A stretch of DNA of 64,000 nt from IMG/VR virus record IMGVR_UViG_3300029305_011823; one strand, written 5' to 3'. Under the pieces are notes generated by a model that was not told where the DNA came from, did no database searches, and saw only the letters and a list, made by a program, of their open reading frames with translations. Shown piece after piece: positions 41,670-50,522 of the stretch; position 1 is the stretch's first letter; each line of letters opens with the position of its first letter. The position numbers and the translations under genes were made by a program. The DNA comes from a virus (Duplodnaviria; Caudoviricetes).

Positions 41670-44066
41670 TTATTTAAACCATATTTCGTCCCCATACTGC
41701 TTGATAGTCCTATCAGTTGTAAATGGGAAACTGTTTGCTATATTTATTAAACATTTTTTGTTCCATTCTCTTCTGTTATTTTTGTATAAACTATTCATTT
41801 CATATGTTTTATCAAGATATTCTTGTAAATCTGTTAATGTGAAGAAATGGTCATTTGACATTAATTCCCAATATAATTCTTCACCAGCTCTATCAATTTG
41901 TTTTAACATTTCCATTGCTTTTTCTATCTTGTTGTTTGTTTTAACTATATGTCTTCCACTTAAATCTGTCCATGTAGCATATCTATTTAAAACTTCATCT
42001 TTACGTAAACCGAATAAGAATATATTTTCTTCTCCTACATATTCAGTTATCTCAACATTAGCACCATCTAATGTACCTAATGTTAAAGCACCATTCATCA
42101 TGAATTTCATATTTGATGTTCCAGATGCTTCTTTAGATGCAGTTGGTATTTGTTCAGATATATCTGTAGCAGGTATTATTAATTCTGCTTTAGAAACATT
42201 GTAATCTTCTATAAATACAAGTTTCATTTTTCCATTTACTCGTTCGTCATTATTTATAACTTTTGCTAATTTATTAAATACTTTTATAACATTCTTAGCT
42301 GATCTATAACTAGCTGCCGCTTTACCAGCCATTATAAATGTCATAGGATAAAATTCTTTTTCTGGATTTTCTAATAAATCGTTGTATATCATCATTATTC
42401 TTAATACGTTCATTATTTGTCTTTTATACATATGAATACGTTTTATCTGAACGTCGAATATACTATTAGGATCTAAATCCAATCCTGTCTCTCTTATAAA
42501 TCTTTGTTTATTAAGCATTTTAATATCATTTATTGTCCATAATATTGCACCTGTATCATGGAATTGTTCTAATTCTTTCATTTGTTTAAGATCCTGTTTC
42601 CAACCTTCTCCTAATATTGTAGTTATGAATCTAGTTAAATCAGGATTTGCTAATAATAACCATCTTCTATGTGCTATACCATTTGTTTTGTTATTAAATG
42701 CTTGTGGTTTATCCATATAGAAATCTTTAAGAGTTTCTTCTTCTAATATTTCTGTGTGTAATGCAGCAACTCCGTTTATACTATAGCTACACATACAATC
42801 CATATTAGCCATACGTACGTTTCCGTAGTTATCTATTATTTTCATTCTATCTATTTTAGATGTATTATATCCTTTTACTTTTCTTAAATACTCTACATAT
42901 CTTCTGTCTATTTCTTGTATTATCATATATATTCTTGGAATTAAAGATTGTAACATATACCCACTCCATACTTCAAGAGCTTCTTGCATTATTGTGTGGT
43001 TTGTATAACTACAAACTTTAGTTGTTACATTCCAAGCTTCATCCCATCCTAATCCTTCTTCATCCATTAACACCCTCATTAATTCAGGTATAACTAAAGA
43101 TGGATGTGTATCATTTATATGAACTGCAAGATGTTTATCTAGTTCTCTTAAATTCACTCCACGTTTTTTGAATTTATTAACTAAAGATTGTATACCTGCA
43201 GAACATAGGAAATATTCTTGTTTTAATCTTAATTCTTTACCTTCATGTGTAGAATCATCTGGATAAAGATTCTCACATATTTGATTTATTAATGTCCTTC
43301 TTCTTTGCATGTTATTATCATGACAATAGTTTATTCCACATTCATCAAGAATATTATAAGAAGGCATATCAGCTTCCCAAGTTCTTAAATAGTTCACTGT
43401 ATTATTTTCATAACCAGGAACTGGTATATCATATGCTCTTGCTACTATTGGTTCATAGTTTTCAAGAATTGGAACTAAATCATTTCCATTAGTTTCAAAT
43501 CTAACCGAACCTCTAAGTTTGATTATATATTCTTCACCTGATTTTGAATCCCAAGCATAATAACCATTCTTAAGCCATCTATCAGGTAACTCAACTTGCT
43601 CATCATTAAATATTTCTTGTTTGAACAACCCATGTCTATATCTTATAGTTTGACCATAACCTGCATATTCTAAACACGCCATTGAATCTATGAAACAAGC
43701 AGCTAATCTACCTAATCCTCCGTTTGCTATAGCTGGTTCTGGTTCTACTTCAACTAATTCATTTAAATCCCAATCAAGGTCATCCATAACTTCATTCACT
43801 ACATCTTCTAATCCTCTATTTAAAATTATTGATTTAAGTTGTTTTCCTAATAAGAACTCTATTGAAAAATAATGTACCTCTTTCTTCCCTTCAAGATTTT
43901 GATTACATCTTTTCCAATCTTCTGACATTGTATCTTTTAAAGAATTTGCTAAAACGTCAAATCTTTCAAATACATTTAATTGATCTACATTCTTTTGAAA
44001 TATTTTAGTTGCGTTTTTTTCAATTAACTTTTTAAAATTATCAACTCTATCAAATTCTTTTATCAT
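41670..44066 (-). CDS. glgP: glycogen/maltodextrin phosphorylase
   Basis: YFSIEFLLG, NGGLGRLAACF, RLKQEY, INDTHP, YTNHT, NGVAALH, QIKRIHMYKRQ, PLP site EASGTSNMKFMMNG. Confidence 0.95.
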   Translation of the reverse strand: MIKEFDRVDNFKKLIEKNATKIFQKNVDQLNVFERFDVLANSLKDTMSEDWKRCNQNLEGKKEVHYFSIEFLLGKQLKSIILNRGLEDVVNEVMDDLDWDLNELVEVEPEPAIANGGLGRLAACFIDSMACLEYAGYGQTIRYRHGLFKQEIFNDEQVELPDRWLKNGYYAWDSKSGEEYIIKLRGSVRFETNGNDLVPILENYEPIVARAYDIPVPGYENNTVNYLRTWEADMPSYNILDECGINYCHDNNMQRRRTLINQICENLYPDDSTHEGKELRLKQEYFLCSAGIQSLVNKFKKRGVNLRELDKHLAVHINDTHPSLVIPELMRVLMDEEGLGWDEAWNVTTKVCSYTNHTIMQEALEVWSGYMLQSLIPRIYMIIQEIDRRYVEYLRKVKGYNTSKIDRMKIIDNYGNVRMANMDCMCSYSINGVAALHTEILEEETLKDFYMDKPQAFNNKTNGIAHRRWLLLANPDLTRFITTILGEGWKQDLKQMKELEQFHDTGAILWTINDIKMLNKQRFIRETGLDLDPNSIFDVQIKRIHMYKRQIMNVLRIMMIYNDLLENPEKEFYPMTFIMAGKAAASYRSAKNVIKVFNKLAKVINNDERVNGKMKLVFIEDYNVSKAELIIPATDISEQIPTASKEASGTSNMKFMMNGALTLGTLDGANVEITEYVGEENIFLFGLRKDEVLNRYATWTDLSGRHIVKTNNKIEKAMEMLKQIDRAGEELYWELMSNDHFFTLTDLQEYLDKTYEMNSLYKNNRREWNKKCLINIANSFPFTTDRTIKQYGDEIWFK

Positions 44067-44130
44067 ATTAATTATTCTCCTTTTCCTATTCCATAATTTT
44101 ATTAATTCATTGTATATACCCATATAAATT

Positions 44131-44265: not shown

Positions 44266-44796
44266 TTATTTTAATACATCTTTTATCCAACTAGGACATG
44301 TTGTTTTAGCACCTGATCTTCTCCAAGCTTTCCACAACTCTTCACGTTTCTTTGTTTCCTCATCTACAACTGTATATGTTATTTTAACATTAGTTGTATT
44401 CGGGTCTCTCCAAATTTCTAAGAATTCATTAACAGCTTCAGCTTCAGATACTTCTCCTTCTAATGGTGTATTCTTTTCTAAATCGTAAACCATAGTTCTA
44501 GCATTATTACTTAATTCATCATTTCGTCTTGCTAAATCTAATATCACTGATATATGAATGAAATCTTGTTCATCTGGATAAACGTCACCATATTGATCCG
44601 TGAAACTAACAGTTATTGTATCTTTATATTCATCTTTTATATCATTCCATATTATTGAATACGTATGCATTCGGTACCCAAAATAATTTCCAATATCTTT
44701 ATATTTCACCCATATACCGTCATTATAAGCAACATAACCAATTTCAACTTCTTTACCATACTTCATTAATTTGTAAAATTTTAATTCACTATTCAT
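44266..44796 (-). CDS. BRO-N-like domain protein
   Basis: IWVKYKDIGNYFGY...DEYK...FIHIS.I..L pattern of Bro-N. Confidence 0.5.
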   Translation of the reverse strand: MNSELKFYKLMKYGKEVEIGYVAYNDGIWVKYKDIGNYFGYRMHTYSIIWNDIKDEYKDTITVSFTDQYGDVYPDEQDFIHISVILDLARRNDELSNNARTMVYDLEKNTPLEGEVSEAEAVNEFLEIWRDPNTTNVKITYTVVDEETKKREELWKAWRRSGAKTTCPSWIKDVLK

Positions 44797-44826
44797 AATA
44801 TCATTCTCCTTTATTTTTATAATTTT

Positions 44827-45180
44827 TATTGTTAACATGATTAAGTCTAATAATGTTGTATATACTTATTATATCCTAATTACTCGAGCTTGGCTGGTAC
44901 TCATACCATTCACACCTTTTCAGGTTAACCCCTCTCTTTCTCTCAGGATTAATGTCTTCAGCATAGATTTTAAAATCCTTAGCTTACTATAACATTAGAA
45001 TATCCATTCACCTAATTACTCGAGCTTGGCTGGTACTCATACCATTCACACCTTTTCAGGTTAACCCCTCTCTTTCTCTCAGGTTCATACTTTTGGCATA
45101 GTCTTAGACCTTAGCCTACGGTATTAGAATATTCAGTTTTGTATTTTTAATTATTATTAAACTTAATCATGTTAACAATA
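44827..45180 (-). ncRNA. candidate ~350-nt structured RNA with two tandem domains enclosed by a 28-bp terminal stem
   Basis: Exact 73-nt direct repeats (44875-44947, 45011-45083); 28-nt inverted repeats (44827-44854, 45153-45180); covarying receptor hairpins; promoter +1 at 45179. Confidence 0.7.
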
Positions 45181-45190
45181 ATTACTTGTT
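45179..45190 (-). promoter_or_regulatory. AR9-type late promoter
   Basis: AACAAGTAATTA; predicted +1 falls at the start of the terminal stem. Confidence 0.7.
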
Positions 45191-45250
45191 ATATTAAATA
45201 TAGTTAATCAATAAGGATAAATTTATCCTTATTGATTATTTGATTCATCA

Positions 45251-46165
45251 TTAGAATAAATGTTTAAATTTTTCGTTATTGATTTTAAATTTGTTCATTT
45301 TAGCATATGCTAATTTTATATTTTCAGGAACTTTCATATCTTTATTATTTACAACTGCTTCTAATAATTTATAATTAAGATATTTATCTATTAACGTTTC
45401 TTTTCTTCCTGTTCTTTCATTAAATCTTACTATTGAATTACAAGCTGCGTGTAATGCTTTTTCAAATTTTTCTTCAGATAATGCACCACAAGTTTTATAT
45501 AAGAATGATTGTATTCTTGTTGCATATGGTTTATGTTTTTCATCTATATTCTTATCTATTCCTGCTTTACAACATGCTGTTACAAATTCTTCTGGTTGTA
45601 AATCTGGAATTGCTTGTGTTAATATTGCTCCTAAAACATTTTCACTTATAGCACTTATTGAATATTTACCATTATATGCTTTAAATAATATCTCTGGTAA
45701 ATTTTCTAAAATGTTTTCAACTTCTTTAGATCTAAAGAATGGAGTTACTTCATATCCCCTAACTGTTTTAACTGAAGACATTAATATTACTATATCAGTT
45801 TCTTTATGTCCTGTTATATTCATTCCTAATTCTATTTCTCTTAATTGATATCCTAACATATAAGCTTCATTTGCTAATTCTTTATCTTCTATATGATGTG
45901 TTGCTGTATATAATACAAATGCCATATTAAAGTTAATTCTTGAATCTCCTGAATTTATTAAATATGAAATTGTATTCATAAATCTTTTTCCTCTAATGAT
46001 TTCACACACTTCATTAAATTCTTTCTTAGCTTTATAATTATACATGTTATTTACAAAATAATCTATTATCACTTCTTGATAATCTATTACAGCTGCTTCT
46101 AATTCTTGCATTGTTAAATCATAACTCATTTCATTTACAAATCCTTTTATATTTAGTTCTCTCAT
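45251..46165 (-). CDS. hypothetical protein
   Basis: 304-aa helical ORF with RBS. Confidence 0.8.
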   Translation of the reverse strand: MRELNIKGFVNEMSYDLTMQELEAAVIDYQEVIIDYFVNNMYNYKAKKEFNEVCEIIRGKRFMNTISYLINSGDSRINFNMAFVLYTATHHIEDKELANEAYMLGYQLREIELGMNITGHKETDIVILMSSVKTVRGYEVTPFFRSKEVENILENLPEILFKAYNGKYSISAISENVLGAILTQAIPDLQPEEFVTACCKAGIDKNIDEKHKPYATRIQSFLYKTCGALSEEKFEKALHAACNSIVRFNERTGRKETLIDKYLNYKLLEAVVNNKDMKVPENIKLAYAKMNKFKINNEKFKHLF

Positions 46166-47113: not shown

Positions 47114-47782
47114 TTATTCTGATATATAAAATACAATCAATCTACCATTCTTAACACTATAATCACATGTATATAATCCAACTATATGACTATTCTCATC
47201 ATATTCAACACCATTAATAAAATAATCACTATTTTGTTTTATCAATGCCACAGCATCAGATGTTTCCATATTGTCAATTTGTTTATAAAAGAAATTGTTA
47301 TTTGTAACATAATAAGCAAACGGCTTGAATGTTTTTGTATTTTCTGCCGTTTCTATAGTCAATACAGACTCTTTAAATCTTTGATGGTCTTTTTGAAAAT
47401 AATGTAAGTTATTAAACATTGTTCCATTTTTCATACTATGTCCGTACAACATTGTATACTTACCATCAAAAGGTTCATCACTAGAGCAATAGAATATAGC
47501 TCCACTATTGCTTTCATTCCCTTGATAATCGTGATTGATATAAAAAATATTATCTGTATATGTCATAACAGGATAGTCTATAGCAGTTCCTTCTACTGTT
47601 ATCCAATCATATCCATGCTCTTTTAAATACTTACTAGTATCATTTGATCGTGTTTTTTCGTTTTGTACTTCTTCATAAGTTTTCTTAGCTTTATAATATT
47701 CCCATTGCTTTTGACCAATTTCCCATGAACTTATAGATAATACTGCAATTAATATTACATTTATAACATTCTTTAATTTCAT
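47114..47782 (-). CDS. srtB: class B sortase
   Basis: N-terminal TM; WI.V.GT.IDYPV, FYINHD, SGAIF, YGHSM..GTMF..L (His), LYTC (Cys), GR (Arg). Confidence 0.9.
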   Translation of the reverse strand: MKLKNVINVILIAVLSISSWEIGQKQWEYYKAKKTYEEVQNEKTRSNDTSKYLKEHGYDWITVEGTAIDYPVMTYTDNIFYINHDYQGNESNSGAIFYCSSDEPFDGKYTMLYGHSMKNGTMFNNLHYFQKDHQRFKESVLTIETAENTKTFKPFAYYVTNNNFFYKQIDNMETSDAVALIKQNSDYFINGVEYDENSHIVGLYTCDYSVKNGRLIVFYISE

Positions 47783-47845: not shown

Positions 47846-48439
47846 TTATTCTTCATCTTTCTTTTTATTAACTACAAATAATCCTATACTTGCTGCTGCT
47901 ACTGTTATTGCTCCAACCATCATACCAGCATCTCCTGTATTTGGATCATGTATTTCTGGTTCTTCTTCTACTGGTGGATCGACTGGTTCGTCATCTTTAA
48001 AATCAGGCACACCGTTTCCATCTTCATCTTGTGGATATTTATAATCTATTCCTATTTTTACAGTTTTTACATCTGATGCTCCAAGAGGATCGTCAAGATC
48101 GTCAAGATCTACACTATTACGTATCAATCCAGACCCATTATTTTCTACATTTATTTTTTCCATTGGTACATTAACTTCAGATCCATCTTTTAATATTAAT
48201 TTAACGTATGTTATATTATAATTTTCAACCCATGCTGCTTTTATATCTGCTAATAAAATATTAGATGGTCCATCTAGTTCTAAAAAAACATTGTTATCTT
48301 GGAATATGAACACTTCATCTAATTTTATATTTTCAACAATTAACGCATCATTAACATGTACATCGTCTGCAAATACATTTCCGCTCATTCCAAATACTAA
48401 TAAACCTGCTACTAATAAACTTTTAACTTTTTTGTTCAT
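47846..48439 (-). CDS. cell-wall-anchored protein (sortase substrate)
   Basis: Signal peptide ending VFA; Pro/acidic linker; sorting signal DPNTGD, hydrophobic TM, KKK tail. Confidence 0.85.
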   Translation of the reverse strand: MNKKVKSLLVAGLLVFGMSGNVFADDVHVNDALIVENIKLDEVFIFQDNNVFLELDGPSNILLADIKAAWVENYNITYVKLILKDGSEVNVPMEKINVENNGSGLIRNSVDLDDLDDPLGASDVKTVKIGIDYKYPQDEDGNGVPDFKDDEPVDPPVEEEPEIHDPNTGDAGMMVGAITVAAASIGLFVVNKKKDEE

Positions 48440-49004: not shown

Positions 49005-49076
49005 TTATATCATTCCCCTTTCTATTCTAAATATTTGTTATATATGTTATAAAAAAATAAGATACCTTGAGGTATC

Positions 49077-49703
49077 TTATTTCCATTCCATTCCATACAT
49101 GTCTTCGTATATTTTGTTGAATTCTTCTTCATTCATTATTATTTTTCTTGACTCATTTAACATGTCTTCTGCATATTTTGTATTGAATCTAGCATATCCT
49201 TTTTCTCCATATTTGTCTTGTAAATGACTTATTACTTCTTCATATATTTCTTTGTTGTTTTTATCTGGATAATGTTTTCTGTTCCATTTATATGTTCTTT
49301 CTATCATTGTGTATATATCATTCATTCTGTCTGCGTCTGAAACTATCTTGCTATATATACTTGTGTATTCTCCTTTGTAACTTGCTCTATGCTCTTCTAC
49401 TGCTTTTGCTATTATTTCAATTTGCTCTTCGTTAAAGTATTCTTTTAACTCTTCTTCTCTTCTTACGATTTCACCTGATTTTAGGTGATGTGTTTCTCTG
49501 TCATATTTTAATCCTAGGTCGTGCATTGCTGCTATTGTTTTTACCATGTTTATGTTTAACTCAACATGTTCATCTTTCATCATGTTTTTTGCAATGTATT
49601 CTGAATTTTGTATTACCATTCTTGCATGATCTTTGTTGTGTGCTGGATCGAAACTTTCATATCTTTCTATTATACTTTCTAAATATTGATTTAATTTTTT
49701 CAT
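49077..49703 (-). CDS. HD-domain phosphohydrolase
   Basis: AH..DH, AAMHDLG, HH, EEHR, SDADR. Confidence 0.9.
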   Translation of the reverse strand: MKKLNQYLESIIERYESFDPAHNKDHARMVIQNSEYIAKNMMKDEHVELNINMVKTIAAMHDLGLKYDRETHHLKSGEIVRREEELKEYFNEEQIEIIAKAVEEHRASYKGEYTSIYSKIVSDADRMNDIYTMIERTYKWNRKHYPDKNNKEIYEEVISHLQDKYGEKGYARFNTKYAEDMLNESRKIIMNEEEFNKIYEDMYGMEWK

Positions 49704-49802
49704 AATATCATTTCTCCTTCTAATTTTTATTTTACCTCACTATTATAATATGGTATCGTTTTTCTACAAATTACAGAAAAAAATAAGATACCTTAAGGTA
49801 TC

Positions 49803-50522
49803 TTATTCATCTAAAGTTTTTGGTAAGAAATAGTCGTTCATTACTAAGTCTGTCATTAATCCTGCACCTATAAAGAATACTGCTGCAGAATTTAATGTTG
49901 TTTTATTTGATAATTTATCTGTTAATTCATTCATTGCAACATAACCATCTCTTGCTATCTTTTTATTCATTTCAGCTTTCATAACCATATCATCAGCTCT
50001 CATAGACATAAGTTCTTTTAATGAAACATTTGCACCTACTGTAAGTAACGCTATAGTTTCTTGGTCAGAGTTTCTTGAGTTTTTATCATGACCTGCAACC
50101 TGACCAGTTATCATATTTCTTTCACTTATATCCGTAGATATACCTATCTTCTTGAAGTTAAGTTGTTGTAAACGTTTTATATTTAAATATCCAACTAGAC
50201 ATTCATGTTTAGTTATTATTGGATTATTTGGATCTTGACTTGCATAAGGTAAAACAACTTTTTCAAATAATGGTACATCTAAAAATTTTGCAGCCTTTTC
50301 TATATTTTCTATTTTTAATGGATTTTCGTAATCAACCATAGTTGCTGTTAAATATGGGTCATCTTGTTCAAATAGCAATTTAAAGTATTGATCGAATTCA
50401 GCATCTGACATACTTTTAAACTTATTTCTATAATATTCAGTGTTTCTTCCAGATGGGTCAAATAAATCAAAGAATCCATATATTAAATCTTCCATCTCTT
50501 TTCTTTTAGCTTTATTCATCAT
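49803..50522 (-). CDS. RNA polymerase beta extreme C-terminal fragment (probable virion RNAP subunit)
   Basis: VGYLNIKRLQQ...ITGQV...SRNSDQETIAL...LKELMSMRADD parallels RpoB VGYMYMLKL...TQQP...QRFGEMEVWAL...LQEMLTVKSDD. Confidence 0.8.
   Translation of the reverse strand: MMNKAKRKEMEDLIYGFFDLFDPSGRNTEYYRNKFKSMSDAEFDQYFKLLFEQDDPYLTATMVDYENPLKIENIEKAAKFLDVPLFEKVVLPYASQDPNNPIITKHECLVGYLNIKRLQQLNFKKIGISTDISERNMITGQVAGHDKNSRNSDQETIALLTVGANVSLKELMSMRADDMVMKAEMNKKIARDGYVAMNELTDKLSNKTTLNSAAVFFIGAGLMTDLVMNDYFLPKTLDE

Follow-up and report, generated by a model that had tools for sequence, protein, structure and literature searches.

Several families of structured RNA share parts of their design with the locus reported here. 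Riboswitch aptamers such as glycine (RF00504), GEMM-I (RF01051) and ydaO (RF00379) likewise carry tandem or tetraloop-receptor aptamer-like domains in a 5′ leader, and in GEMM-I (c-di-GMP-I) a GAAA/receptor contact also occurs, between two neighboring hairpins. ROOL (RF03087) and GOLLD (RF01998) are also phage-borne, tertiary-structured RNAs of Gram-positive-type phage genomes, and their function is not known. The P1/P4-type antisense immunity leaders, including C4 (RF01695) and isrK (RF01394), are structured, processed leaders upstream of antirepressor-type genes of the Bro/KilA/Rha class. Tandem RNA repeats of variable copy number upstream of a gene of ~170 aa are known from the ToxI type III antitoxin arrays and from the expandable pseudo-ToxI of phage phiTE, which are a precedent for phage repeat RNAs as protein decoys. 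RNase III processing stems, such as the T7 R sites and those of the 16S/23S rRNA precursors, are duplexes of at least 20 bp that flank a structured RNA within a longer transcript and, as in the present element, adjoin a coding region. At the level of single motifs, the canonical 11-nt receptor, reportedly described by Cate and colleagues in 1996, has the strands CCUAAG/UAUGG. The group I intron P4-P6, RNase P and tectoRNA share this receptor and its GAAA loop, which together form a recognized motif class (PMC11571812).

Here we analyzed a window of 64,000 nucleotides from an IMG/VR virus record (28% G+C, 128 kb, estimated to be 58% complete). A 454-nt gap without ORFs between a 304-aa gene and a 176-aa gene on the minus strand of this window holds an element whose best reading places it in a new family of non-coding RNAs, modular and tertiary-folded, that occurs in a clade of uncultivated giant phages of the AR9/PBS1-like type. 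Neither this RNA family nor its architecture is represented in Rfam 15; the motifs from which it is built are known ones. The parts of the locus, in the direction of the minus strand, are listed below.

45205-45238, minus strand: terminator-like hairpin, perfect 17 bp, which ends the upstream 304-aa gene (45251-46165) and separates this gene from the element
45179-45190, minus strand: AACA-N6-TA motif, a candidate AR9-type late (non-virion RNA polymerase) promoter with a predicted +1 at 45179, the third base of the stem 5′ arm
45153-45181, minus strand: 5′ arm of the terminal stem (~30 bp), from the repeat search and from pairing across six relatives
45135-45152, minus strand: A-rich 5′ spacer from the terminal stem to module A
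45123-45134, minus strand: 12-nt linker GAAUAUUCUAAU ahead of module A, its first 8 nt self-complementary
45087-45124, minus strand: receptor arm of module A (type A), a hairpin that contains a GUA/AA internal loop and a GAAA receptor of the 11-nt type
45109-45114 and 45096-45101, minus strand: receptor strands of module A, CUAAGG and CUAUGC, respectively
45010-45084, minus strand: 3′ domain of module A, with the CCUGA/UUAGG helix, a 6x6 purine-rich internal loop, an irregular helix and a three-way junction
45054-45057, minus strand: GAAA loop of module A; the three-way junction bears the GAAA hairpin and a variable hairpin
44994-45005, minus strand: 12-nt linker GGAUAUUCUAAU ahead of module B
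44950-44997, minus strand: receptor arm of module B (type B), longer in its basal helix, with an internal loop of the AGUA/GAA type and a receptor of the 11-nt type
44977-44982 and 44961-44966, minus strand: receptor strands of module B, CUAAGG and CUAUGC, respectively
44874-44948, minus strand: 3′ domain of module B, its 73-nt core identical to that of module A; GAAA loop at 44918-44921
44855-44873, minus strand: 3′ spacer, AUAUAAUAAGUAUAU-type, kept among relatives
44826-44854, minus strand: 3′ arm of the terminal stem
44806-44811, minus strand: Shine-Dalgarno (SD) sequence AAGGAG of the downstream gene, 14 nt past the stem and predicted to be unpaired
44266-44796, minus strand: 176-aa gene, downstream of the RNA in every case, whose product has a predicted Bro-N/KilA-N/APSES-like N-terminal fold

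The two core units that the original prediction had placed 136 nt apart were recovered by repeat search as direct repeats of 73 nt each (44875-44947 and 45011-45083), 100% identical and with the same spacing. They lie within a 29-nt inverted repeat (44826-44854 / 45153-45181) that is 97% complementary and is the longest and best of the 64-kb window; its sole mismatch is a U-G on the minus strand, in agreement with the long terminal stem (44827-44854 with 45153-45180) and the minus-strand G·U proposed before. The minus-strand RNA of the element folds with a predicted free energy of -98 kcal/mol, compared with -64.6 ± 5.0 kcal/mol for dinucleotide shuffles (z = -6.7), and none of 100 shuffles was as stable. 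The element is present as a single copy in the 128-kb record (58% complete by estimate), the terminal arms occur nowhere else in it, and a covariance model of the module found only the two known modules in the genome of the phage.

Twenty homologs of the 176-aa protein were identified (46-84% identity), and relatives of the locus were reached exclusively through exact-protein look-ups in ENA, Logan and JGI assemblies, in which 12 of 12 contig look-ups gave DNA. The element was present upstream of every fetched homolog of the 176-aa gene whose contig extends there, on 13 metagenome contigs, and the most distant clade (L151 and L143; protein 46% identical) carries it as well. One module was found in L135/L136, two in the window, L129, L131/L132, L138, L142 and L144, and four in L133, with the modules ordered A-B or, in L133, A-B-A-B. 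Seven contigs (L130, L134, L139, L140, L141, L143 and L151) start inside the RNA array, presumably since assembly breaks down at the repeats, and module copy number in relatives is therefore probably under-sampled. The upstream neighbor varies among relatives between a gene of 304-308 aa and an IF1-like gene, indicating that the conserved linkage is that of the RNA with the 176-aa gene. Outside these contigs, a BLAST search of the element against 50,697 phage records gave no match, exact and degenerate core patterns gave none or chance and coding matches only in IMG/VR, JGI metagenomes and GTDB genomes, and protein-guided locus searches of IMG/VR and JGI metagenomes, with single proteins and with an alignment, returned nothing. 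The module covariance model likewise had no match in Bacillus phage Goe21, Staphylococcus phages SA1 and DC4 or Listeria phage LPJP1.

An alignment of 20 modules was used for the fold, and its RNAalifold consensus comprises 33 pairs in seven helices. Pairing is kept in 98.5% of 654 module helix cells, compared with 90.4 ± 0.6% in column shuffles (0 of 500 reached the observed value), and falls to 28-43% when pair partners are slid by one to three columns. Changes on both sides were found at 15 of the 33 pairs, and double-change cells number 60 against 16.7 ± 4.0 in shuffles. The covariation among homologs that the original prediction had named as a check is thus present, with compensatory changes at these 15 pairs and an invariant tetraloop and receptor in all 20 modules; its variable arm, in which sequence changes and pairing is kept, was also borne out by compensatory changes.

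Each module is ~125-135 nt in size and consists of a 5′ receptor hairpin and a 3′ domain. The basal helix of the 5′ hairpin occurs in two orthologous types, A and B, and is followed by an internal loop with an invariant GUA opposite AA, which in type B is AGUA/GAA and, at the level of sequence, is consistent with a bulged-G/loop-E motif. Beyond this loop the hairpin continues with a helix of 3 bp and then the receptor, and ends in a variable helix with a cap. The 3′ domain opens with the CCUGA/UUAGG helix. After it come a purine-rich 6x6 internal loop and an irregular helix of 8-9 bp, which leads to a three-way junction with two arms, the GAAA hairpin and a second hairpin whose length varies. 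Interpretation of the 6x6 loop as a k-turn was discarded on sequence grounds. The CCUGA/UUAGG helix is 100% paired, and four of its five pairs show compensatory changes: it reads CUUCU/GGGAAG in three modules, and the distant clade has a third variant, CUCUU/GAGAG. The module-closing helix UUCUAAU/AUUAGG of the original prediction did not hold as the main fold, since it is 92.5% paired against 100% for the competing CCUGA/UUAGG helix and is broken in exactly the three of 20 modules in which the latter covaried.

The distribution of G-U pairs in the modules indicates which strand carries the structure. The module helix cells comprise 526 Watson-Crick pairs, 118 G-U, 1 A-C and 9 others, and pairing in the same helices reaches 98.5% for the minus strand of the window, compared with 80.6% for the opposite strand. 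The excess of G-U over A-C points to an RNA read from the minus strand, as opposed to a DNA palindrome, and the earlier proposal of a structured minus-strand RNA with tandem domains is upheld by these counts. A coding reading was rejected because the element contains no conserved ORF, the longest ORFs being 14-51 aa in varying frames and on varying strands.

All 20 modules share, without a single change, the GAAA loop, closed by a U-A pair, and the receptor core CUAAG...UAUG, around which the outer closing pair varies (G or A before, C or U after). Both motifs had been predicted from the window, and both are confirmed across the family. The modules match the canonical 11-nt receptor at 10 of 11 positions (the C-G pair, U·A, AA platform, G·U and bulged U) and differ at the outer pair, which is C-G in the canonical form and G-C, A-U or G-U in the modules; the RNA around the motif is unrelated to introns or RNase P. 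These features strongly suggest that the GAAA loop docks into the receptor. A single-module version (L135) exists, so one loop and one receptor suffice, which favors an intramodular or an intermolecular contact.

Each of the 20 modules follows a copy of the 12-nt linker GAAUAUUCUAAU, and the sole difference is at position 2 in module B of the window. The first 8 nt of the linker are self-complementary. It could pair with its second copy, with a further molecule, or with the 3′ side of the helix that opens the 3′ domain, and a register-shifted alternative pairing with the purine-rich 3′ strand is conceivable.

Module cores within one genome are 0.78-0.99 identical (0.99 in the window), compared with ~0.76 between genomes, which indicates that cores have been homogenized by recombination or conversion. 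Between genomes, receptor arms are 0.85 identical in A-A and B-B comparisons and 0.65 in A-B comparisons; because the arm types have been kept distinct while the cores were homogenized, the difference between A and B may matter. Varying copy number and homogenized cores would fit a dosage-type, recombination-prone array. Nucleotide identity of the RNA (0.75-0.89) is similar to that of the neighboring gene (0.78-0.83), so that it is covariation and the invariant loops, instead of raw identity, that argue for function.

The terminal stem, compared among six two-module elements, has 30 pairs, of which 9 are changed on both sides; it is 97.2% paired, against 31-51% in slid controls, and its predicted duplex energies range from -34 to -54 kcal/mol. 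Taken alone it contains 4 G-U cells and 5 non-pairs, with little strand asymmetry, so the strand is not readable from the stem by itself, and this part, though not the modules, could conceivably be a palindrome at the DNA level. A duplex of 29-30 bp is long enough for an RNase III-type enzyme (about 20 bp or more), which might cleave it. Different from the element, the T7 R sites are short irregular hairpins that do not enclose a structured array of 300-700 nt, and cleavage of the element is putative.

Known families did not account for the RNA, as the original prediction had anticipated. Rfam 15 gave no match at gathering score in the whole 64-kb window, three chance-level matches at E <= 10 on 44700-45300, all of them outside the element, and no match at E <= 1 on four homologous loci. 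Recognizable membership of ydaO, GEMM-I, glycine, ROOL, GOLLD, C4/isrK and the small ribozymes is thus excluded, and literature searches yielded nothing similar to this modular RNA. The loose likeness to the ydaO (c-di-AMP) aptamer that had been proposed was abandoned because no Rfam match appeared even at E <= 10. A likeness to the hairpin ribozyme, noted by eye, was also dismissed, the similar stretch being a self-contained covarying hairpin with no Rfam match.

The element differs from riboswitch aptamers in having no covariance-model match, no expression platform and a copy number of 1-4, and in lying upstream of a Bro-N-like gene instead of a metabolic, transport or signaling gene. Compared with ROOL and GOLLD, which it does not match, it is far smaller per unit and holds a variable number of repeated modules in one long stem. 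C4 and isrK differ from it by the lack of an Rfam match, by the lack of visible complementarity to the ribosome-binding site and by their setting, because the element belongs to a lytic-type giant phage and not to a temperate phage. A type III toxin-antitoxin system (ToxIN-like) was considered and rejected: the units of ~130 nt have a tertiary fold and alternate in two types, whereas ToxI units measure 34-45 nt; no terminator separates repeats and gene; and the downstream fold is Bro-N/APSES-like and not that of a ToxN-type endoribonuclease, with no ToxN/AbiQ-type match for the protein in Pfam.

The array lies 20-30 nt upstream of the ribosome-binding site of the Bro-N-like gene, on the same strand. 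In the AlphaFold model of the 176-aa protein (pLDDT 73.6, with residues 1-110 at 80-90), VIA-align superposed the N-terminal domain (residues 1-111) on the baculovirus Orf22 N-domain 4ye7 (Z 9.1, 95 aligned residues, rmsd 3.6) and on the APSES DNA-binding domains of Mbp1 (Z 6.8) and Bqt4 (Z 6.6-6.8 for the two). Foldseek with the same model gave E values of at least 0.08, which are not significant alone, and Pfam Bro-N matches two of 21 family members, with a best E of 7e-4, below cut-off. The C-terminus bears a conserved TCPxW motif. The family is tiny, with 14 clusters at E <= 1e-3 among 1.8 billion representatives, and PHROGs gave no match for the genes flanking the element. "Bro-N-like" is a fair, if not proven, label for this protein, and the predicted position of the element upstream of a BRO-N gene agrees with the fold of the model and the weak Pfam match.

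The record encodes split RNA-polymerase beta fragments (PHROG match) whose nearest cultured relatives, ~38% identical, are those of Bacillus phage Goe21 (a Takahashivirus of the PBS1/AR9 group), the Staphylococcus jumbo phages and Listeria phage LPJP1. The late promoters of AR9 have the non-template-strand consensus A(-11)ACA-N6-U-A/G(+1) (PMC5449584), and the motif at 45179-45190 on the minus strand matches it, with a predicted +1 at 45179. Among the AACA-N6-TA sites of the genome, 60 of 164 are intergenic, whereas intergenic DNA makes up 11% of the genome, and an extended form, TATAACAA-N5-TA, is common at the intergenic sites, including the promoter motif of the element. The promoter of the original prediction therefore stands in its fit to the consensus and its intergenic enrichment, and falls short in conservation: among eight complete loci the motif keeps the same register to the stem in four (the window, L129, L142 and L144, the subclade of the window) and is absent ahead of the stem in L131, L133, L135 and L138. 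In the last three of these, an IF1-like gene and a hairpin directly adjoin the stem. A late promoter is plausible for the subclade of the window and is not general; the RNA of loci without the motif must come from read-through within an operon.

Taken as a whole, we see about an even chance that the array is excised at the long stem and acts in trans as a protein- or ligand-binding RNA. Docking of the GAAA loop into its receptor would lock each module into a compact fold, which would present conserved unpaired nucleotides as a binding surface. The array would be transcribed as part of the transcript of the Bro-N-like gene, starting in the subclade of the window at the late promoter, with +1 inside the stem, and being made in other relatives by read-through of the upstream gene. 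The long duplex would insulate the fold and serve as a double-strand-specific (RNase III-type) processing site, at which cleavage would release a stable, closed-ended RNA. As a decoy, sponge or scaffold, the released RNA might then bind either a protein or a small ligand, with a dose that scales with module number. A more specific form of this idea, which we consider speculative and rather unlikely, is that the array is an RNA sponge whose modules are aptamers for a host or phage factor (a defense protein or a signaling nucleotide), or a scaffold that self-assembles into a higher-order particle through the self-complementary linker and loop-receptor contacts, the module number setting the dose; if true, this would establish a new class of viral RNA effectors that act in trans.

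A cis-acting regulatory leader would account equally well for the strict linkage with a single gene and the lack of a terminator. In such a leader the modules would be operators or aptamers that bind a ligand or a protein and thereby control translation or stability of the Bro-N-like mRNA, comparable to tandem riboswitches or to the structured leaders of ant/kilA/rha genes; the reading includes autoregulation by the Bro-N-like protein and a pure 5′ stabilizer. This reading is possible though on balance doubtful. It draws on the invariant placement of the element immediately ahead of the same gene and in the same orientation, with no terminator-like site seen between the stem and the 176-aa gene, and on the promoter +1 at the stem base in four loci, which would make the RNA the 5′ end of the mRNA, a 5′-paired end being a known design of mRNA stabilizers in Gram-positive hosts. 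A covarying, conserved aptamer-like domain of the kind that defines riboswitches is present, but an expression platform, whether terminator/antiterminator or SD sequestering, was not seen. The SD sequence is predicted to be unpaired with a probability of 0.78-0.99 in all eight complete leaders, so SD sequestration was rejected, and the open SD together with the missing terminator argues against a classical riboswitch platform. No complementarity of the element to the ribosome-binding site was seen, there is no C4, isrK or riboswitch family match, a perfect 30-bp stem of -34 to -54 kcal/mol is too stable to switch, and a copy number of 1 to 4 would be unusual for the regulator of a single gene.

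A self-cleaving ribozyme array, or another self-processing RNA in which cleavage at or near the conserved linker frees unit-length RNAs, seems quite unlikely to us: no Rfam 15 ribozyme (hammerhead, hairpin, twister, twister-sister, pistol, hatchet or HDV-like) matches at E <= 10, the single-module version in L135 exists, and no cleavage-site signature was found, against which stand the tandem unit-repeat layout with its nearly invariant, single-stranded 12-nt linker, the conserved cores stabilized by a putative tertiary contact, and the fact that small ribozymes are common in phage genomes. An element acting as DNA would be either a transposon of the miniature inverted-repeat kind or else a site made of iterons and a palindrome, serving as an origin or for protein binding and recognized by the Bro-N-like protein. 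The 29-bp terminal inverted repeats around direct repeats, the predicted DNA-binding fold of the neighboring gene product and the low G-U asymmetry of the terminal stem are in line with this idea, yet it is very improbable, given 118 G-U against 1 A-C in the modules, pairing on one strand only and compensatory changes in hairpins that have no rationale at the DNA level. The transposon in particular was rejected on its single copy in the 128-kb record (58% complete), its arms occurring nowhere else, and its syntenic position in all relatives. The remaining probability goes to explanations other than these.

Few conserved RNAs combine clear tertiary motifs with strong covariation, and the majority of them have proved to be riboswitches, ribozymes or ribonucleoprotein cores. 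The modular phage RNA is unusual in combining ~130 nt per module, a textbook GAAA/11-nt receptor pair and natural versions with one, two and four modules; the giant phages that encode it use RNA polymerases of their own to transcribe their genes. Its compactness and natural module variants make it tractable for structure determination and partner finding. If it serves as a decoy or an aptamer, phage-host biology would gain an RNA-based effector, and as a leader control element it would be a regulator without a recognizable expression platform.

Other genes of these phages were also recorded. The phage of the window encodes a full-length glycogen phosphorylase (PF00343, E 7e-264; listed with window 41670-44123, minus strand), a protein with a sortase domain and another that carries an LPXTG-type anchor signal (window 47114-47782 and 47846-48439, both minus strand), which together indicate a Gram-positive host. 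A small ORF (35-45 aa) and the IF1-like gene (PF01176) lie downstream of the Bro-N-like gene in L129, L139, L141, L142 and L144 and directly upstream of the RNA in L133, L135 and L138, so the gene order is permuted around the pair of RNA and Bro-N-like gene. Genes of the NUMOD4/HNH_3 homing-endonuclease type occur a few genes downstream in some relatives only (L133 5485-6064, L134 2980-3558 and L135 5915-6493). Elsewhere in the window, a near-identical pair of 27-nt palindromic hairpins (49056-49082 and 49781-49807) flanks the gene at 49077-49703, and these look like a duplicated terminator-type hairpin.
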